DNA from: Clostridia bacterium
GTDB lineage: Bacteria > Bacillota > Clostridia > TANB77 > CAG-508
NCBI GenBank assembly: GCA_051891195.1
Contig: JBJFEZ010000061.1
Span: 10,178-74,177 of the forward strand
DNA length: 64,000 nucleotides
Direction of reading: 5' to 3'
Numbering within the stretch: position 1 is the stretch's first letter; every line of letters begins with the position of its first letter. Positions 12,878 through 25,485 of the stretch are shown in pieces. The notes under the pieces were generated by a model, which did no database searches, had not been told where the DNA came from, and was given only the letters and a program-made list of their open reading frames with translations. The position numbers were made by a program, and so were the translations under genes.

Positions 12878-12963
12878 GTCGATGTGGCGGAATAGGCAGA
12901 CGCACAGGTCTCAAAAACCTGCGGATAACATCCATGTGGGTTCGATTCCCACCATCGACACCA
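12878..12963 (+). tRNA. tRNA-Leu(CAA), class II with long variable arm, intact; appears to be island-encoded
   Basis: Folded by hand: acceptor gtcgatg/catcgac, anticodon stem caggt/acctg, loop ctCAAaa, variable-arm hairpin, T-arm gtggg-ttcgatt-cccac, 3' ACCA. Confidence 0.85.
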
Positions 12964-14318: not shown

Positions 14319-14531
14319 CTAAACAACACTTTGATTTAATAAATAAGAAATAATATTTTGTTTAGGAATTTTATATTGTCTACCAACTTTTATAGACTTA
14401 ATAGTATTTTGCTTTACTAACCTATAAGCAAGAGTAATTCCTATGCCTAGCATTTCTGCTAATTGATTTACATTTACTACATCTTTATATGCAGTAAACA
14501 TAGTAGAGTAATTTTGTTTTAAATCTTTCAT
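14319..14531 (-). CDS. Excisionase/Xis-like small HTH DNA-binding protein
   Basis: 70 aa, helix-turn-helix LAEMLGIGITLAYRLVKQNTIKSIKVGRQYKIP (MerR-like Xis family). Directly upstream of int. Confidence 0.65.
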   Translation of the reverse strand: MKDLKQNYSTMFTAYKDVVNVNQLAEMLGIGITLAYRLVKQNTIKSIKVGRQYKIPKQNIISYLLNQSVV

Positions 14532-14635: not shown

Positions 14636-15082
14636 TTAAAAAGCATTCATACTAATTCTTTTTGGTGCATCAAAGCCAGCTTTAATTCCCTTTAGCATGA
14701 CAAATTGATTTTTAATACTATCATAAGCGTAAATACTAGAATTAGCTTTCTTAAAGGCATAGTCAGAAAGAGGATGAGGGTTATAAGAAAGTTCTATTGA
14801 ATCTTGTCTTTGTTGTTCTAATAATTGCTCGTAAGCGATATCTTTTTCTTTTTTTCTAACATAATTCTTCTGATATTCGGCTTGAGCAATTTTGCGTTTT
14901 TCTGCATTACTAGATTTTCTAGAACTTTTTTCATTTTCATATCGTCCATCTTTTTTGATTATTTTAGAAATATATTGTTGAGAAGCATTAACTATTTCTG
15001 CAATTTCTATTTGTTTTAAATGCTTATTAAAATATAAATCTAATATTTGCTCTTTCTTATCCAAAAAATTTCCTCCTTTCAT
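14636..15082 (-). CDS. Putative transcriptional regulator with a sigma-70 region-4-like HTH
   Basis: Start taken at MKGGNFLDKK, which has RBS aaaggagga just before it; the 40 upstream codons of the ORF track lack any start signal. Segment KEQILDLYFNKHLKQIEIAEIVNASQQYISKIIKK. Confidence 0.5.
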   Translation of the reverse strand: MKGGNFLDKKEQILDLYFNKHLKQIEIAEIVNASQQYISKIIKKDGRYENEKSSRKSSNAEKRKIAQAEYQKNYVRKKEKDIAYEQLLEQQRQDSIELSYNPHPLSDYAFKKANSSIYAYDSIKNQFVMLKGIKAGFDAPKRISMNAF

Positions 15083-15157: not shown

Positions 15158-15186
15158 TTGACTATTGTCTATAAAAAAGATATAAT
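15158..15186 (+). promoter_or_regulatory. Consensus promoter (TTGACT, 17 nt, TATAAT) driving the Zn-ribbon/kinase cassette
   Basis: ttgact attgtctataaaaaaga tataat. A copy of this promoter region survives in the decayed second island (23668-23700). Confidence 0.5.
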
Positions 15187-15322
15187 AGTAATATCTTAAC
15201 AAGGTTTAACAATTATAAAATGTAATAATTACTATTAATCACTAATTACATTATAGAGTAATAATTCATACTTGTCAAGTATTACATATAAAATTTTTGA
15301 AAAAATTTTTAGGAGAGTGAAA

Positions 15323-16225
15323 ATGAAGAAAAATAATGAAGGAAATTTCAGAACTTTTTGGTTTAGATATGATAGTTATGAAATGCGAGAAATAGAAGAA
15401 AAACACTATATTACACCAAAAGAAAATTCAAAAGTAGTTATGTATGATCCATTTGATTTAGCAGATGACATATTAGTAGATATTTTAATGATAGGAAGAT
15501 GTGTTGAAAAAAATGACATAGAAGAATCTAATAAAATGATTATGGAATTTGTGGAGAAATATGGATTATTAGGAGAATTAACATATTTACCATTAAATAC
15601 TGATATAGTGGCACAAAACAAAGTTTATTTACCTAGTGGGAATTTAGTTAGTGATAAAGAAACATTACCTACTGCTGAATATATAGAGTTATTTTTAAAA
15701 TGTAGAAAGAAACAAAAAATCACTATGAAGAAAAATGCAAGAGGAGAAATTTTAGAATTGTCAGCAGAAAATGAAATGAACCCTGTTGTAGCCATAGATA
15801 GACCAGCTGAATATGCAGTTGTTTTCTCAAAGGCTTACTCAGAGTGTTTAGTTTGGATAATGCATTATGCAAGAACATTATATCAAACTTTTGAAGCAAT
15901 AGAAAATTATAGTAAAGTTGAAGATGCTTATACAAAGCAATTATATGATAATCGCATAAAGAATTTTAATCCATCAAAAATAGCTTGTAAGATATTAATG
16001 GGTAAAAATAAAGAAGACAAACCTGTTATAGAATGGAATTTTAATTCTTTAAAATTAGCAATAGATACAATGTTTGCTTTAAATGAAACTACTGAAAGAA
16101 AAACAGTAAAAATGTGTAAACATTGTGGTAAGCCATTTTCTTCTGAAAACTTGAAAGCTGAATATTGTAGCCCACAATGTAGAAATCAAGCAAATGTTTA
16201 TAAAAGTAGAGCAAAAAATAAATAG
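15323..16225 (+). CDS. Hypothetical protein with C-terminal zinc ribbon (CKHCGKP..x14..CSPQC); first gene of the HipA-like cassette
   Basis: Start MKKNNEGNF with RBS aggagagtg. No recognisable HTH. Confidence 0.55.
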   Translation: MKKNNEGNFRTFWFRYDSYEMREIEEKHYITPKENSKVVMYDPFDLADDILVDILMIGRCVEKNDIEESNKMIMEFVEKYGLLGELTYLPLNTDIVAQNKVYLPSGNLVSDKETLPTAEYIELFLKCRKKQKITMKKNARGEILELSAENEMNPVVAIDRPAEYAVVFSKAYSECLVWIMHYARTLYQTFEAIENYSKVEDAYTKQLYDNRIKNFNPSKIACKILMGKNKEDKPVIEWNFNSLKLAIDTMFALNETTERKTVKMCKHCGKPFSSENLKAEYCSPQCRNQANVYKSRAKNK

Positions 16226-16239
16226 AGTGGAGGAACTAA

Positions 16240-17197
16240 ATGATTGAATTAAAAAACTTTGATAATTGGGTAGAAGATATTGAATTTGGAAAATTCGGTA
16301 GTGGTGCAAGTGAAAAAGTTTGGCTTATTAATCCAGAAACAAACGAAAAAGGGCTTTTCAAATTTCCAAAAGTAAAGGATAAGGAAAAAGGAATAATAAC
16401 AGGAGAATATTGGGCTGAAAAACTTGCAACAGAAATAGGAAAATTAGTTGATGTAGAATGTGCCAAAGTAGATATTGGTATATATAAACGGAAGAATTGG
16501 CTCAATGAGTTATAACTTGGTAGAATATAGTTCAGAAGATAACTATACAAACCTATTAGAAGGTATAGTTTTTATAGAAAATCAGTATCCATATTATGAC
16601 AAAGATAAATTAGAGGATACTTATTCTAATAGTAAATATTCTATACAAATGATACAAAATAGTTTAAATGGAATATTAGAGATGGATAAATTTTATAAAA
16701 TTGTTATATTTGATATTTTGATAGGAAATAGTGATAGACATCATAGTAATTGGGCAATTTTAGCCAAAGGAACAGTATATAAGACTCCAGAAGATATGCT
16801 TGATATATTTTTTAATTATAATATGTGTCCTTTATATGATAATGGTTCATCATTATGTGCCTACGAAGATAATAATAATCTTGAAATATTTTTTAAAGAT
16901 AAAATGAAGTTTGAAGCATTAGTAAATACAAAGTCAAAATCTGCTATTGGATGGGAAAATGAAAGACCTATTAGACACTTTGAATTATTGAAAAAAATAA
17001 AAGACAATGCATATGAATTAACAGTACAATATATAGAAAAGATTAAAACTAATATTAATGAAGAAAATATAGATAAAATTTTAAATGAGTTTGATAATAA
17101 TATAATAAGTATAGATATGAAGAAATTATTAAAAATGTATCTTTTAGAACGAAGAAAAAGAATATTAGAGATATATGATTTGAAAGATGAGGTGTAA
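16240..17197 (+). pseudogene. HipA-like Ser/Thr kinase core (HipT-like, no N-subdomain 1), interrupted by a +1 insertion (c at 16489); possibly an artefact
   Basis: ORFs 16240-16515 and 16475-17197 overlap. Removing the c in aaa c gga aga gives a continuous ~318-aa protein with HipA motifs: FGSGASEKVWL (like GAQEK), GEYWAEKLATEIG, IFDILIGNSDRHHSNWAIL (catalytic D.H..N), CPLYDNGSS. Confidence 0.7.
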
Positions 17198-17204
17198 AAG
17201 AAAA

Positions 17205-17555
17205 ATGGAAAAAGATTTAGTATATTTAGTTTGGACAGATGTTAAAACAGGAAATAAATATAAAGTAGCTGAATTATATAAAATGAATAATGCTTTTTAT
17301 TTTAAGTATATTCTAGAAAATGTAAAAGAGGCTCAAAAAAGTGGTTTTAAATTATTAATTGCATTTCCTCAAATTAATGCTTTATATGATAATCCAAAAT
17401 TATTTGCTACTTTTGCAGCAAGATTACCAGAGCCTACAAGACCAGAAATAAAAGAGATTTTAGAAACTTATGGAATGACAGAATATGATGCGTTTGAATT
17501 ATTAAAAAGAAGTGGTGCAAAACTACCTACAGATAATTATGAATTTGTAAAATAA
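17205..17555 (+). CDS. HipA N-terminal-subdomain-like small protein (HipS-like) downstream of the kinase
   Basis: 116 aa; LVYLVWTDVKTGNKYKVAELYKMNNAFYFKY and LFATFAARLPEP resemble the HipA N-domain (VGEL..F.Y, FNFF.NLLPD). Start is 8 nt after the kinase stop, with RBS gaggtg. Confidence 0.5.
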   Translation: MEKDLVYLVWTDVKTGNKYKVAELYKMNNAFYFKYILENVKEAQKSGFKLLIAFPQINALYDNPKLFATFAARLPEPTRPEIKEILETYGMTEYDAFELLKRSGAKLPTDNYEFVK

Positions 17556-17581: not shown

Positions 17582-17610
17582 TTGATTAGAAAATATCAAT
17601 ATGCTATAAT
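17582..17610 (+). promoter_or_regulatory. Promoter (TTGATT, 17 nt, TATAAT) for the serpin gene
   Basis: Read directly. Confidence 0.45.
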
Positions 17611-17661: not shown

Positions 17662-18957
17662 ATGAAAATGCAAGAAAATAAAGAATTAAAAATCAAATTA
17701 AAAACAGCAATTATTTTAATTGTAATATTATTAATAGCAGTAGTAGCAATATTTGCATTAATAATGAATAAGGGAGACGAAATTGGTTCTAAAGGTGGTA
17801 GTACAATAGTTGGTAATGAATCAGAAAAACAACAAGCTATGGATACAGATTTTTCAATGAGTTTTTTAAAATTAGAAAATGATAAACAAAATATGATATA
17901 TAGCCCACTATCAATAAAATATGCATTAAAAATGCTAAACGAAGGTGCAAATGGAAATACTAAGACTCAAATAGAAAATGTAATAGGAGAATTAAATTTA
18001 ACAAAGTATAATAATATTGATAAAGTATTATCTTTAGCCAATGGTGTATATATTAGAGATACTTATGCTAAATATGTAAAAGAAGATTATAAAAAAATAC
18101 TAACTGAAAAATATAATGCTGAAATAAATTATGATTCTTTTAATAATGCTAATAATATAAACAATTGGATTGAGAATAAAACTTTAGGAATAATAAAAAA
18201 TATGTTAAAAGATGATTTAGTAAGAGATCCGCTTACAGAAATGCTTCTTATAAATGCCTTGGCTATTGATATGGAATGGGAAGAATCTTTTGATAGCAGT
18301 AAGACTTATGGAGAAGAATTTAATTTAGATAACGGAAACAAGATGATAGCAACAATGATGCATAAAGAAACAAAAAGTGATAATATATCATATTATAAAA
18401 ACAAAGATGTTACAGCTTTAACAATGGATTTAAAAGAATATAATGATACACAACTAGAGTTTATTGCGATAATGCCTGAAGAAAATCTGTCAGATTATAT
18501 AGAAAGTTTTACTATAGATGATTTTGATACTATTATAAAAAAATCAAAATTAGCTTCTAAAACTAAACATGGCGTAGACATTTCAATACCAAGATTTTCA
18601 TTTGATTATGATTTAAAACTTAAGAACGACTTGATAAAATTAGGAATAACAGATGCTTTCAGTGATCGCGTAGCCGATTTTTCTAATATGTCAAATAGAG
18701 AACTTTATGTTAGCGATGCATTACATAAAGCAAATATAGATTTCACTGAAAAAGGTGTTAAAGCTGCAGCAGTTACTGTAATTGTTATGGCAGACAAATC
18801 AATGGTAGCAACTCCTACTAAACCTGAAGAAATAAAAATAGATAAACCTTTCTTGTATATGATTAGAGATAAAAATACAGGAGAACTATGGTTTGTAGGA
18901 ACTGTTTATGAACCAAATTCTTGGGAAGATGATAAGGCAGATTATCAATATAGATAA
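17662..18957 (+). CDS. Serpin-family serine protease inhibitor with N-terminal membrane anchor
   Basis: 431 aa. N-terminal TM helix; hinge and reactive-centre-loop region EKGVKAAAVTVIVM; C-terminal KPFLYMIRDKNTGELWFVGTVYEP (serpin signature F..D.PF.F.I). Confidence 0.8.
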   Translation: MKMQENKELKIKLKTAIILIVILLIAVVAIFALIMNKGDEIGSKGGSTIVGNESEKQQAMDTDFSMSFLKLENDKQNMIYSPLSIKYALKMLNEGANGNTKTQIENVIGELNLTKYNNIDKVLSLANGVYIRDTYAKYVKEDYKKILTEKYNAEINYDSFNNANNINNWIENKTLGIIKNMLKDDLVRDPLTEMLLINALAIDMEWEESFDSSKTYGEEFNLDNGNKMIATMMHKETKSDNISYYKNKDVTALTMDLKEYNDTQLEFIAIMPEENLSDYIESFTIDDFDTIIKKSKLASKTKHGVDISIPRFSFDYDLKLKNDLIKLGITDAFSDRVADFSNMSNRELYVSDALHKANIDFTEKGVKAAAVTVIVMADKSMVATPTKPEEIKIDKPFLYMIRDKNTGELWFVGTVYEPNSWEDDKADYQYR

Positions 18958-18970
18958 ATTATAAAGTATA

Positions 18971-18995
18971 AAGGAGCTGTGTTGCTCCTTTTTTT
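18971..18995. terminator. Bidirectional terminator between the serpin and relaxase genes
   Basis: aaggagc tgtgtt gctcctt followed by ttttt. Confidence 0.6.
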
Positions 18996-20283
18996 ATCTA
19001 TCTCTATATTTATTTTTAGATTTAGCTTTTTCTTGCTGTTCAGCTTTTTGTCTTTCTTCTTTTAACTTTTGATGAAGCTCATATATTTTAATTTTATCTA
19101 TTCTACTTTGAATATTATCACAATGTCTTATTTCTTCAGCAAGTGGTGTAATCTTTTTAGAAATTTCTACAATTTGATTTTCAATATTTTTCTTTTCATC
19201 TTCAGTTTTAGCTCTTTTATGCTTTTTCCATAAGTTTTCTCTTTCACTTTTTAGAGGATTAATTTTATCATAAGCAGATTTTTTAAAATCAAACAATCCT
19301 TGCTCCGTATTAATCTTATATTTAGCTAAAAATTTTGCTTGATTTGAATATTCATCCATTTGTTTTATTTCTTTTAACAATTCTGGAGTTATTCTTGTTA
19401 TATTCGATTTTGAGACTTTTTCTACATTTATACCTAATAATTTCTCATAATGAAATATCAAACCAAGAATAGAGCTTTTATTTTGAAGGTAACTTTCTTT
19501 TATATTGTTATATTTTTGAAAAGTTCTGTCAAGTAATGATTTAGGATTAGGAGTGTATGGAAAACGTGGCTGAGTTTCTAATATTCTTTTATAAATATTT
19601 TCTTTTGAATATTTATTTCCAAATTGTCTTTCAATTCTAGTGTTTCTTTTATAAGGCTCTCGCCTAATTGATAAAGTATCATTTTTATCAGTAACAATAT
19701 AATCTAAATCTTGAAGAATTTTTATAAACTCATTATAATCTTTTGCATTTTCTATTGCATAATCAATAGAATCTTTCATTAACTCTTTATATAAACTACT
19801 TGAAGCATATTTATTATATTTTTCTTCTTGTTTTAAAACACTTAATCCATAATCTTCACAAAGTCTATCAGATGTTTTTCGCATAGTAGCATAATCCTTT
19901 TTAGTATTGCAAAATCTTTTTCCATCTAGGAAAGAAACAGAGTTTAAAACAAAATGATTATGAATATTATCAGTATTTAAATGAGTTGAAACAACTACTT
20001 GATATTTATCTCCCCATAGCTCTTCAGCAAGTTTTATTCCAATTTCATGTGCTTGTTCTGGAGTAACCTCTTTTTCAGCAAAAGATTGAATTGCATGAAA
20101 ACATTCAATACCACCTGTTTTAAAAAATTGTTTTTTTACATTCTTCATTTCATAAAAAGCAGTATCGGGCATACAATTTATACCTGATACATATAGCTTG
20201 TGTTCGGTTTTTTCTCCATTAATTGCATATTCGATAAGACTGTCTAATCTGCTCTTGAATTTCCATATTTTTGTTGTAGCCAT
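18994..20283 (-). CDS. MOBV-family mobilization relaxase (MobM/Pre-like)
   Basis: 429 aa, HLNTDNIHNHFVLNSVSF (H.DE..H.H-type motif in MOBV relaxases), coiled-coil C-terminus. Confidence 0.75.
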   Translation of the reverse strand: MATTKIWKFKSRLDSLIEYAINGEKTEHKLYVSGINCMPDTAFYEMKNVKKQFFKTGGIECFHAIQSFAEKEVTPEQAHEIGIKLAEELWGDKYQVVVSTHLNTDNIHNHFVLNSVSFLDGKRFCNTKKDYATMRKTSDRLCEDYGLSVLKQEEKYNKYASSSLYKELMKDSIDYAIENAKDYNEFIKILQDLDYIVTDKNDTLSIRREPYKRNTRIERQFGNKYSKENIYKRILETQPRFPYTPNPKSLLDRTFQKYNNIKESYLQNKSSILGLIFHYEKLLGINVEKVSKSNITRITPELLKEIKQMDEYSNQAKFLAKYKINTEQGLFDFKKSAYDKINPLKSERENLWKKHKRAKTEDEKKNIENQIVEISKKITPLAEEIRHCDNIQSRIDKIKIYELHQKLKEERQKAEQQEKAKSKNKYRDR

Positions 20284-21999: not shown

Positions 22000-23139
22000 T
22001 TAATTTAAATTTTTAATTTCGGTATATCGATTGTAAAGTTTATTTATTAAAGTATCTAATTCTTCTGTCATTTCAATTTCTTTGTAGTAGTATTGTTTAA
22101 TAAGTTTTAATTCATGACTACTTACTTGTATATCAAGAAAAGTCAATCCTTGACAATAGCTTTCATTTGGATTACCAGTAAAATTTGGATCAATACTTCT
22201 TTCATATAAAACTGTTACTATATATTCTAATAATTCATTTTTGGTGAAGGCTCCTTGTTTGAATTTTTCTAATAATGGTGATGTCTTGAAAAAGATTTCT
22301 TTCATTAATTTTAAGTTTGTATGAATACCATTTCCTAAATCTAAATATGCATCATCAGGGATTATTCTATCATTTGAGACTGTTCCAGAATAATCAGCCT
22401 TCTTTATTTTTTCAGCATATCCCATTAAATTAACAGGAGGCATAACAATATTATTAATTGCTGTCATCATTAATAAATAAAATAAATATAAATTATTTTC
22501 TAATTTATCTTCATGTGTAACCAATATGGTATTATCAGTAGGAACAATTTCAATTTCTTTAAAACCATGTCTATTTATACCAAAAATTAATCCTTTATCC
22601 AAAATGCATACAATGCTTAACCTATTTTTTATATCTATACTATTATTAAACTCATCAATTTTTTTAACAATGTTATTTAAACTGGTGTCACTAGAATATG
22701 CAAATATCATGCATATTGGTGGAATAATAGAAGAAATTATTAAAGGAGATGAGAAAGGTTTTGTTTTTTCTAACTTTTTTACACTTTCTATATTTTTAAT
22801 ACTTTTCTCTAGTTCATCAACTGTTAGTGTTGATTTTACTTCAATAGTAGCATAGACACTCTCAATAGGAATTACTTGTACACTTTCAGTTTCCATTAAT
22901 TTAGGGCTATTAAAGTTATCATAAATTATAAAATCTTGTTGCCTACTTTGAGTTTCATTAGCATCAACAATAACTCCATTTCCTATAGCATATTTAGTTG
23001 GAAAAAGTTTAGATAAATATTCTTTTAATTTATCCTCTCTAATTGTTCCTTTTAATCCATTATGCTCAATTTTACTACTTAATTTTTGATAATCACTTTG
23101 TAAATTCTTTGCCATTTCTTGTAAATTATAAATAAACAT
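22000..23139 (-). CDS. Hypothetical protein with N-terminal PD-(D/E)xK nuclease-like motif (candidate defence or abortive-infection nuclease)
   Basis: 379 aa. ..GTIREDKLKEYLSKLFPTKYAIGNGVIVD..SRQQDFIIYD..IPIESVYATIEVKS fits a D..(D/E)xK core. No other family recognised. Confidence 0.4.
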   Translation of the reverse strand: MFIYNLQEMAKNLQSDYQKLSSKIEHNGLKGTIREDKLKEYLSKLFPTKYAIGNGVIVDANETQSRQQDFIIYDNFNSPKLMETESVQVIPIESVYATIEVKSTLTVDELEKSIKNIESVKKLEKTKPFSSPLIISSIIPPICMIFAYSSDTSLNNIVKKIDEFNNSIDIKNRLSIVCILDKGLIFGINRHGFKEIEIVPTDNTILVTHEDKLENNLYLFYLLMMTAINNIVMPPVNLMGYAEKIKKADYSGTVSNDRIIPDDAYLDLGNGIHTNLKLMKEIFFKTSPLLEKFKQGAFTKNELLEYIVTVLYERSIDPNFTGNPNESYCQGLTFLDIQVSSHELKLIKQYYYKEIEMTEELDTLINKLYNRYTEIKNLN

Positions 23140-23221: not shown

Positions 23222-23250
23222 ATCTAACATATCTAACAAAACATCTAACA
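23222..23250 (+). repeat. Three direct ATCTAACA repeats (candidate arm-type recombinase-binding sites) near the island right end
   Basis: catctaacatatctaacaaaacatctaaca. Confidence 0.35.
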
Positions 23251-23403
23251 TTTTTTCAAAAAACTTGCAAAAAGTATAAAAACTATGTTATAGTTTAATA
23301 AGTAAGAAAAACGACGATGAGTGCTAGAAAATCCATAGTTTTGAGCTTTCTAAAAAGTAATATTTAATACTAAAAATAAATAAGTATAAAATAGCTTAAA
23401 AGA

Positions 23404-23458
23404 CTCAAAATCCTGCGAAGTAACATTCGTGTGGGTTCGACCCCCACCACCTGCACCA
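23404..23458 (+). repeat. 3' half of tRNA-Leu(CAA), anticodon loop to CCA; attR-side partner of the 12700-12740 fragment
   Basis: ctcaaaatcctgcgaagtaacattcgtgtgggttcgacccccaccacctgcacca. Preceded by non-tRNA sequence, followed by terminator 23465-23498. Confidence 0.85.
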
Positions 23459-23498: not shown

Positions 23499-23659
23499 AT
23501 TAAAGACCTAAGTCTTCTGCCTGTGCTTTTGTGACAATGTGTATTCCCTGTTTAATAAGGATATCTTTGAGTATTTCCATATGAAATTCTTAATACATTT
23601 AAAGAACATAGCTATAATATCATATTTATGTAAATCTGTCAAAAATTTTTAAGCGATTA

Positions 23660-23866
23660 CCAAACAAAACTTGACTATTGTCTATAAAAAGATATGATAG
23701 TTATGAAATGCGAGAAATAGAAGAAAAATGCAAGAGGAGAAATTTTAGAATTGTCAGCAGAAAATGAAATGAACCCTGTTGTATCCATTGGATAGAAGAT
23801 AAAGTTTCTGGTAAGTTCGGTAGTGGTGCAAAACTTCCAACTGATAATTATGAATTTGTAAAATAG
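23660..23866 (+). pseudogene. Patchwork remnant of the Zn-ribbon / HipA-like / HipS-like cassette
   Basis: Consecutive segments match 15147-15180 (promoter), 15369-15400, 15735-15795, 16275-16315 and 17520-17555 of the intact island. Confidence 0.7.
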
Positions 23867-24030
23867 TTATAATACTAATAATAAAAAGATAGAATAATTG
23901 ATAGCAGAAATAATAATTGAATACTGAAAAAAATTACAAAATAAAAATATTTGGTTTTAACTTGTCATAATTATAATATTATGCTATATTAAATTAGAAT
24001 AATAATTATTAATTAAAGGGGAAATAGAAA

Positions 24031-25119: not shown

Positions 25120-25268
25120 ACAATTCCTCCTATACATATATCAATTCTTTTAATATAATTTCTTCAACAGAATGCTTTATATTATTCATTAATCCAACCC
25201 ATTTTAGTTGGTCTTTTACTTTTAATTCTTCAGTAATATTTTCTTTTTCTGCAAATTGCTTCATTAAT
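25120..25268 (-). pseudogene. Truncated copy of the tnpV-like gene 5' region with its RBS
   Basis: About 90% nucleotide identity to 21176-21325. Confidence 0.6.
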
Positions 25269-25431
25269 ACATCCAACATTTTTTCAAAAAACTTGCAAAA
25301 AGTAAAAAGACTATGTTATAATTAAGCAAGTAAGAAAAACGATGATGAGTGCTAGAAAATCCATAGTTTTGAGCTTCTTAAAAAGTAATATTTAATACTA
25401 AAAATAAATAAGTATAAAATAGCTTAAAAGA

Positions 25432-25485
25432 CTTAAAATCCTGCGAAGTAACATTCGTGTGGGTTCGCCCCCACCATCTGCACCA
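25432..25485 (+). repeat. Second, more degenerate copy of the tRNA-Leu 3' half (outermost att repeat)
   Basis: cttaaaatcctgcgaagtaacattcgtgtgggttcgcccccaccatctgcacca: one deletion in the T-loop and two substitutions relative to 23404-23458. Confidence 0.75.

Follow-up and report, generated by a model that had tools for sequence, protein, structure and literature searches.

A proposed +1 shift at a conserved CGG_A in a hipJS-type kinase gene carried as cargo by a mobilizable island of gut Clostridia

The subject of this work is a promoter-like site and the three genes downstream of it (positions 15158 to 17555) in a stretch of 64,000 nucleotides (nt) from Clostridia bacterium (assembly GCA_051891195.1, contig JBJFEZ010000061.1, positions 10,178 to 74,177 of the forward strand). 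This stretch is called the window here, and all positions refer to it. The first gene, an open reading frame (ORF) named ORF1, encodes a protein of 300 amino acids (aa), the second a kinase of the HipA family and the third a HipS-like protein. The kinase and HipS-like genes are an ordinary cassette of the already catalogued hipJS / PDC-M03 kind, placed in the cargo slot of an island; the new element, found in the toxin gene, is a CGG_A site for a +1 shift that has been conserved. The locus as a whole is probably best explained by a hipJS module carried as cargo, an ORF1 that belongs to the backbone of the island, and a kinase that would be made by a +1 shift. For comparison, one genome per species was scanned for ORF1, which gave 80 loci, all in metagenome-assembled genomes of gut Clostridia; together with the window and loci with an ORF1 homologue fetched earlier, 88 loci were mapped. 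The features of the cassette are the following.

15158..15186, + strand: rightward promoter-like site TTGACT-17-TATAAT upstream of ORF1, 11/12 matches
15323..16225, + strand: ORF1, 300-aa backbone protein with a putative C-terminal CGNR-type treble-clef zinc finger; ORF present in 88/88 loci
16240..16488, + strand: kinase 5' segment, frame 0, codons 1-83; PADLOC PDC-M03A positions 2-76; Gly-rich loop FGSGASEK at residues 19-26
16486..16492, + strand: conserved +1 shift site AAA CGG A with an extra C at 16489, from comparison with intact alleles
16490..17197, + strand: kinase 3' segment, +1 frame, codons 84-318 and stop; PADLOC PDC-M03A 73-291/293, E 4e-69; Pfam HipA_C; motifs GNSDRHHSNW and PLYDNGS
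17205..17555, + strand: HipS-like putative antitoxin, 116 aa; Pfam Couple_hipA; PADLOC PDC-M03B 6-117/232

The genes follow each other closely, with 14 nt between ORF1 and the kinase gene and 7 nt between the kinase gene and the HipS-like gene, and each of the three is preceded by a good Shine-Dalgarno (SD) sequence. A preliminary description of this DNA, made from its letters alone, had treated the kinase as one gene at 16240-17197 and had overlooked a frameshift. No uninterrupted kinase reading frame spans this interval: it consists of a 91-aa ORF (16240-16515, with the frame-0 stop at 16513-16515) and an ORF in the +1 frame (16475-17197), set out of register by one surplus C, which stands at 16489 in the window and which many relatives have too. 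Joined across the shift, the two give a protein of 318 aa. Both halves match the PADLOC profile PDC-M03A (PDLC04339) in colinear order, the first over positions 2-76 (E 8e-26) and the second over positions 73-291 of 293, and the joined protein scores 33.9 bits against Pfam HipA_C (E 3.3e-8, cut-off 30.5); the 3' ORF alone, with 27.7 bits, stays below the cut-off. Alignments to CtkA and HipA_C start at residues 19-21, and since the Gly-rich loop lies already at residues 19-26, there is no room for N-subdomain-1. This loop, the catalytic motif GNSDRHHSNW (residues 162-171, D-x-H-x-x-N) and the Mg-binding motif PLYDNGS (residues 197-203) are invariant in 24 homologues. By its profile matches and motifs, the protein is a HipA-family core Ser/Thr kinase without N-subdomain-1, as had been recognized at the outset.

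The fold agrees with this assignment. An AlphaFold2 (AF2) model of the intact allele P0121, which is 98% identical to the window kinase, was obtained with a predicted local distance difference test score (pLDDT) of 78.4. Foldseek searches with this model retrieved CtkA (3e-12, template modelling (TM) score 0.62-0.70), HipA of E. coli and Shewanella (about 1e-5 to 5e-4) and HipT(Lp) (2e-3). CtkA (JHP0940 of H. pylori, PDB 3akj), a HipA-like kinase of 325 aa, is also the closest solved sequence (phmmer 2.6e-5); unlike the present kinase, it is unbroken through the GTYK junction and has no frameshift. It is a secreted proinflammatory kinase that is not known to have a HipS partner. With HipBST of E. 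coli O127 and Legionella, where HipS is the antitoxin, the present module shares the separation of kinase core and N-subdomain into two proteins. Unlike in HipBST, HipS lies downstream, so that the order is reversed, the first gene is an island backbone gene and codes for no HipB with a helix-turn-helix (HTH), and, by the Foldseek values given above, CtkA is nearer to the kinase than HipT is. The view of the cassette as a variant HipBST-type system gives way to that of a hipJS / PDC-M03 relative.

The 116-aa protein scores 22.6 bits against Pfam Couple_hipA (cut-off 22.5) and matches the N-terminal half of PADLOC PDC-M03B (positions 6-117 of 232, E 6e-42), which bears out its suspected likeness to HipS. 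The HIRAN half of that profile is missing from it and from the proteins of all 24 related loci (116-129 aa), and the stop codon is kept in these 24 loci and in a decayed sister copy of the cassette. No HIRAN remnant was found 3' of the HipS-like gene; the stop is native, and 106 nt of non-coding sequence extend up to a serpin gene.

The gene order, for which it had been left to a search whether a named family already has it, and which had been taken for non-canonical, is catalogued, though rare. Gerdes et al. (2021; PMC8262856) described both hipIN, a kinase gene followed by a gene for HipS-HIRAN, and hipJS, a kinase gene followed by one for HipS alone; hipJS was suggested to derive from hipIN through loss of HIRAN, and accounted for 2 of 1,239 modules, without experimental test. 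In PADLOC, the defence candidate PDC-M03 comprises a HipA protein and a HIRAN-domain protein (PMC13245101). Like hipJS, the present module has a short core kinase without N-subdomain-1, with its Gly-rich loop near the N terminus, and downstream a HIRAN-less protein of about 115 aa, similar to HipS and to the HipA N-subdomain. Like hipIN and PDC-M03, it has a kinase that matches PDC-M03A end to end and a small protein that matches the HipS-like half of PDC-M03B, and differs from them in that the partner carries no C-terminal HIRAN. By these comparisons, the kinase and the HipS-like protein are a hipJS-type two-gene module, a putative toxin-antitoxin pair and a HIRAN-less relative of hipIN / PDC-M03. 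It differs from the catalogued hipJS in coming from gut Clostridia, in being island- or phage-borne, and in the conserved +1 frameshift of the kinase gene, which is absent from the description of Gerdes et al. (2021). The literature was also searched for experimental work on HipJ, HipN or HipL and for hipA-like genes with a frameshift, and nothing beyond that catalogue came up.

Intact relatives read TAT AAA GGA AGA (GTYK GRIGSMSYN) where the window has TAT AAA C GGA AGA. About a dozen different shifted alleles were examined as DNA, and all have a C inserted directly 5' of GGA. The codon before the inserted C varies (AAA, AAT, AGG, TAT), the +1-frame codons that follow vary synonymously or conservatively, and the sequence 3-10 nt to either side varies as well, while the C is unchanged. 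Nine of 24 related loci carry exactly this single C lesion and none other, and a tenth carries it together with further damage; the same lesion is present in hipJS copies of prophages, chromosomes and other islands. At the protein level, 75 of the 120 best matches are 3' fragments of 230 aa with 88-100% identity, and nearly all 3' fragments among them are full length. In the index of the collection, the shifted 3' fragment P0144 stands in 1404 blocks; the 98% identical intact P0121 is on 3 contigs. Shifted N-fragments retrieved with the 91-aa product as query form at least 87 distinct clusters (at 90% identity) and are 60-92% identical to it.

Sequencing or assembly error was ruled out as the cause of the frameshift, since many independent assemblies (SPAdes, MEGAHIT, Logan) show the same split. 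Homopolymer slippage and phase variation were ruled out too, since no run longer than AAA is present at the site and the added base is C. Gene callers render such loci as a 91-aa hypothetical protein and a 230-aa truncated "protein kinase". Because annotation pipelines split the gene in this way, catalogues of Hip kinases miss or discard a widespread class of alleles.

The codon created in the zero frame at the shift is Arg in 87 of 89 shifted clusters and Trp in none; one regular-expression parse gave Gly. Mutation of C to T would be the expected drift in a genome of 26% guanine plus cytosine, yet the Arg codon is kept. Among the sense codons of the window, CGG is the least used (2 of 15953 codons, 0.13 per 1000), and GGA is the commonest Gly codon (36 per 1000). 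In the model of the intact allele, the site maps to the turn of a beta-hairpin in the N-lobe, between strands 76-82 and 85-91.

Selection was estimated from the ratio of nonsynonymous to synonymous substitution rates (dN/dS, omega) by the method of Nei and Gojobori. For the 3' part of the kinase, the median dN/dS is 0.23 in shifted pairs and 0.29 in intact pairs; for HipS it is 0.14 and 0.15, respectively. The window's own clade is nearly all shifted, whether on island, prophage or chromosome, with dS of about 0.3 and omega of 0.10-0.23. Both kinase halves and HipS therefore appear to be under purifying selection, with the caveat that shifted alleles recombine with intact ones. Indeed, the kinase gene (16240-17197 in the window, and loci L008-L040) is a mosaic, in which the first 83 codons are conserved (omega 0.05-0.17), while at least six types, 50-85% identical, can be told apart in the rest. 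The trees of the N- and C-terminal parts disagree, which places a recombination boundary no more than about 25 nt from the shift site. Compared with the intact allele of L088-90, the window allele has 98% identity, with five differences within 24 nt around the shift site, and this cluster of changes against an intact sister indicates that recombination is frequent. An ATT/ATA polymorphism 12 nt upstream of the inserted C is linked to it, which favours one origin of the insertion followed by recombination over recurrent independent insertion; the sequence beside the C has diverged since.

Precedent for a site of this composition exists in the mitochondria of glass sponges, where +1 frameshifting takes place at extremely rare CGG_A or UGG_A, with T or C inserted 5' of GGA (PMC5009743). 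As in these and in the Ty3-type hungry-codon shifts, a single base stands directly 5' of GGA, the zero-frame codon is extremely rare in an AT-rich genome, and conserved coding continues in the +1 frame. Unlike the glass-sponge shifts, the present site lies in a bacterial gene on mobile elements, and intact alleles coexist with shifted ones. Moreover, the gene affected codes for a toxin, so that the shift could be regulatory rather than merely corrective.

That the site is decoded by +1 ribosomal frameshifting at a hungry CGG codon has, in our judgement, close to an even chance of being correct. By analogy with HipA and HipT, the kinase may phosphorylate a translation factor, for example an aminoacyl-tRNA synthetase, and in this way stop growth or abort an infection by phage; HipS may block the kinase. 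Ribosomes would pause at CGG, the rarest codon, and slip by +1 onto the abundant GGA. Full-length toxin would then come only from the fraction of ribosomes that shift, while most would end in the 91-aa product, and the output of toxin might thereby be kept low or be tied to the supply of the CGG-reading tRNA. We tentatively go one step further, at slightly less than even confidence, and propose that the hipJ toxin of these gut Clostridia elements may be expressed, through the conserved +1 shift at N-CGG-A, only when decoding of CGG fails or slows. A scarce or absent tRNA-Arg(CCG), starvation or a tRNA pool perturbed by a phage might be the trigger.

If this holds, the shift site would be a translational fuse on a toxin and would link toxin-antitoxin and defence biology to tRNA supply. 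Decoding of the site would represent a new way to throttle or trigger a toxin, in which the rarest codon is recoded. At the same time, it would be a case of bacterial hungry-codon frameshifting with a functional trans-frame protein, of which none was known to Atkins et al. (2016; PMC5009743), and one in which hungry-codon regulation could be tested directly with growth arrest as the read-out.

Several points weigh against production of the kinase by frameshifting. The P-site codon is not a slippery codon of fixed identity. Neither an SD-like stimulator nor a structure downstream could be made out, as judged without formal folding, because the sequence is variable from about 25 nt downstream. 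An in-frame ATG with an overlapping zero-frame stop would permit a reading as two proteins. Shifted and intact alleles are intermixed in the trees of both halves, each 3' type occurring in both states, so that recombination may feed fresh 3' parts to a null allele and thus mimic purifying selection. Finally, the toxicity of the kinase, the antitoxin role of HipS and the frameshifting itself are what we infer, and the literature search gave no experimental test of HipJ or HipI.

The most serious alternative follows from the third of these points, and we regard it as unlikely: the shifted kinase would be an inactivated toxin, in which one ancestral C insertion was favoured since the toxin is costly, and was carried by recombination from one island or phage to another. 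The 3' part of the kinase and HipS would then look conserved only since they were carried in intact genes until recently. The intermixing of the alleles fits such a history, and the five differences in 24 nt from the nearly identical intact allele point to a short conversion patch; the linked ATT/ATA polymorphism speaks for the required single origin, and there is extra damage in L024 and a deletion in L018. What speaks against it is that selection is not relaxed in the shifted alleles, neither in the 3' part nor in HipS, and that nearly all of the 3' fragments among the 120 best matches have kept their full length. The window's 3' type, moreover, is almost always shifted, as the counts for P0144 and P0121 illustrate. 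Mimicry of selection by a recombining null allele is argued against by the invariance of the C in an AT-rich genome while the flanks have diverged on both sides.

In a second alternative, the 91-aa N-fragment with the Gly-rich loop and the 230-aa C-fragment would assemble non-covalently into a split enzyme, which would extend the HipS/HipT split of HipA. For the C-fragment, ribosomes that terminate at the zero-frame stop would reinitiate at the overlapping ATG of GS-M-SYN (ATGAGTTATAA). Gene callers give the 91 + 230 aa pair, with an overlap of 11 nt, at every shifted locus, the break falls at the hairpin turn of the model, and the Hip family is already split in hipBST. The internal ATG, on the other side, lacks an SD sequence where all three annotated starts have a strong one, the C-fragment would lose half of strand 85-91, and a split enzyme leaves unexplained why the inserted base stays C and the codon Arg in nearly all clusters. 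We hold this alternative to be improbable, and return to the reading of the kinase gene as one that would be expressed by a +1 shift.

ORF1 remains to be placed. The protein ends, as described previously, in zinc-ribbon cysteines (C265-x2-C268...C282-x3-C286); all four are conserved among close relatives, and C265 and C286 are invariant across the family. Its motif Y-C-S-P-Q-C-R-N-Q compares with CQNR in Jann_2411, and the CGNR treble clef as described (PMC2954205) fits the C-terminal Y-C-x3-C-R-N-Q pattern. The window protein gave no Pfam match at E up to 1 and no PADLOC match, and a profile search against PDB sequences returned only noise (PPAR matches). The Pfam zf-CGNR domain is matched by 4 of 41 distant members of the ORF1 family, with a best E of 1.6e-5. 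There are 196 close homologues of about 300 aa, which have no Pfam domain, and 990 representatives in the wider family. An AF2 model of ORF1 has a pLDDT of 77.9 and a predicted TM score of 0.81. Set against the ABATE + CGNR zinc-finger proteins (Jann_2411, PDB 3h0n; Pfam PF07336 / PF11706), ORF1 is longer (300 versus about 180 aa) with a much larger N-terminal body, lacks a Pfam match, and has as its context the backbone of a mobile island. From the motif, ORF1 is putatively the island's CGNR-zinc-finger, ABATE-like DNA-binding regulator, and would at most regulate transcription of whichever cargo lies downstream. A role as replication protein, primase or antitoxin found no support in Pfam, NCBIfam, PADLOC or PHROG-independent fold searches.

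ORF1 is present in all 88 island loci, next to more than 20 unrelated types of cargo. It is a backbone gene of the island, the first of the rightward operon, and stands outside the Hip system. The proposal of a three-component HipBST-like system, with the Zn-ribbon protein in the place of HipB as a dedicated partner of kinase and HipS, is accordingly very improbable: the tight spacing behind one strong promoter, the position of ORF1 directly before hipJS in about 11 loci and directly before a Zeta-toxin kinase in L004-7 and L017, and the probable DNA binding that ORF1 would share with HipB are in its favour, and against it stand the constancy of ORF1 whatever the cargo, the other genes (241, 468, 596 aa and more) that often lie between ORF1 and hipJS, the occurrence of hipJS without ORF1 in four other contexts and the missing PADLOC match.

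The remaining features of the island and its surroundings are listed below.

12878..12963, + strand: tRNA-Leu(CAA), integration site of the island; ARAGORN, Rfam tRNA 59 bits
12969..14240, - strand: tyrosine integrase, backbone; same-position homologues carry Phage_integrase domains; cluster c2, in most of the 88 loci
14319..14531, - strand: excisionase-like HTH_17 protein, backbone; Pfam HTH_17, E 2e-10; cluster c3
14636..15082, - strand: small HTH / sigma-70 region 4-like regulator, backbone cluster c1; Pfam Sigma70_r4, E 9.5e-4, below cut-off
15250..15278, - strand: leftward promoter-like site TTGACA-17-TATAAT, 12/12 matches
17662..18957, + strand: serpin, further cargo gene; Pfam Serpin, E 9e-73
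18994..20283, - strand: MobA/VirD2-type relaxase, closes the cargo slot; Pfam Relaxase, E 2.8e-40; cluster c10
23657..23883, + strand: deletion remnant of a second copy, with promoter, two ORF1 pieces, kinase 5' piece and HipS 3' end; repeat families D3, D5, D7, D9 and D10

In the window, the variable slot that holds hipJS as cargo belongs to a mobilizable island integrated at tRNA-Leu. The integrase gene begins 6 nt downstream of the tRNA gene. In loci with the upstream flank on the contig, ORF1 (31-100% identity) is nearly always divergent from genes for the small HTH protein, the HTH_17 excisionase-like protein and the integrase. The homologues of regulator c1 (142-157 aa) are always divergent from ORF1; in the window, the likely start of this gene is the ATG at 15082, the mechanical ORF reaching 15202. 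On the 3' side of ORF1 follows a hypervariable stretch, which ends at a Mob_Pre or MobA relaxase in most loci. Across the loci the slot holds an MmeI-type restriction-modification enzyme, a Dcm methylase, Zeta toxin, and DUF4365, AAA_15, SLFN_AlbA_2, HD and nucleoside-phosphorylase proteins. As a family built of integrase, excisionase and regulator genes, CGNR-finger protein, cargo and relaxase, these islands are a defined hotspot for the discovery of defence genes in gut Clostridia.

The idea that the cassette is a conserved module of the island family holds in so far as the module recurs in the family; as a fixed part it does not, since hipJS occupies the variable slot in only about 25 of the 88 loci. 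It adjoins ORF1 directly in about 11 of these, and elsewhere one or two unrelated genes lie between; in the commonest allele of the window's own hipJS type (locus L102) it is a 468-aa gene. Outside these islands, hipJS without ORF1 is found at prophage ends, with a Bro-N protein and an endolysin as neighbours (L091-96), where chromosome and prophage meet (L097-101), in chromosomes (L104-105) and in another type of island behind a DUF6076 protein (L106-108). L097 and L100 share with L098, L099 and L101 the same shifted hipJS and the same downstream genes, the upstream genes being chromosomal in the former and of phage origin in the latter, so that hipJS lies exactly at the boundary of prophage insertion. 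In the other island family, the DUF6076 protein (L106:2895-3896, also L107 and L108) holds the place of ORF1 before a shifted hipJS, and has an ORF1-like C-x2-C-G-K-x-F...Y-C-S zinc-knuckle stretch (hhalign probability 77%).

Further arrangements were seen among the loci. A gene like that for methionyl-tRNA synthetase follows the Zeta-toxin kinase gene, itself directly after ORF1, in L004-L007 and L017 (6922-7758), and in L015 and L016 genes for a DUF6602 protein and a histidyl-tRNA synthetase-like protein stand directly after ORF1. At L044:12321-12665, a HipS-like gene, 69% identical to that of the window, directly follows a gene for a 487-aa SLFN_AlbA_2 / HATPase_c_4 / HTH protein, in a locus without the kinase. 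HipS may thus have other partners. In the window itself, the serpin cargo gene codes for 431 aa with an N-terminal hydrophobic segment, has a promoter-like site of its own (17582-17610), and is followed by a bidirectional terminator (18970-18991).

Between the two arms of the island, the promoter-like site before ORF1, which had been noted in the preliminary description and is confirmed here, faces the leftward site. The two are near-perfect sigma-70 promoters, face to face between the regulator-xis-int arm and the arm of ORF1 and cargo, with predicted transcripts that overlap by about 50 nt, in a layout that recalls the switches of P2/186 type. From the promoter scan, the two may together act as a switch that sets the int/xis arm against the arm of ORF1 and cargo.

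The decayed sister copy, with pieces of all three genes and the promoter, is likewise real: the pieces at 23657-23883 are 82-100% identical to the promoter, ORF1, the kinase gene and the end of the HipS-like gene (ORF3). The promoter copy (23657-23690) is 97% identical to the rightward promoter, and of the HipS-like gene the last 45 nt are kept, with the same stop codon. To the left lies one copy of a 207-nt direct repeat (23238-23444), and to the right the other (25266-25472), the two being 94% identical. The repeat ends in a sequence like the 3' end of a tRNA, GTGGGTTCGACCCCCACCACCTGCACCA (23431-23458), which resembles the end of tRNA-Leu (12936-12963) and received no tRNA call. The pair probably represents att-type scars of a tandem array of islands. 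Immediately to the left of this tRNA-like repeat and of the decayed cassette, there is a second ORF of integrase size (379 aa, 22000-23139, - strand).

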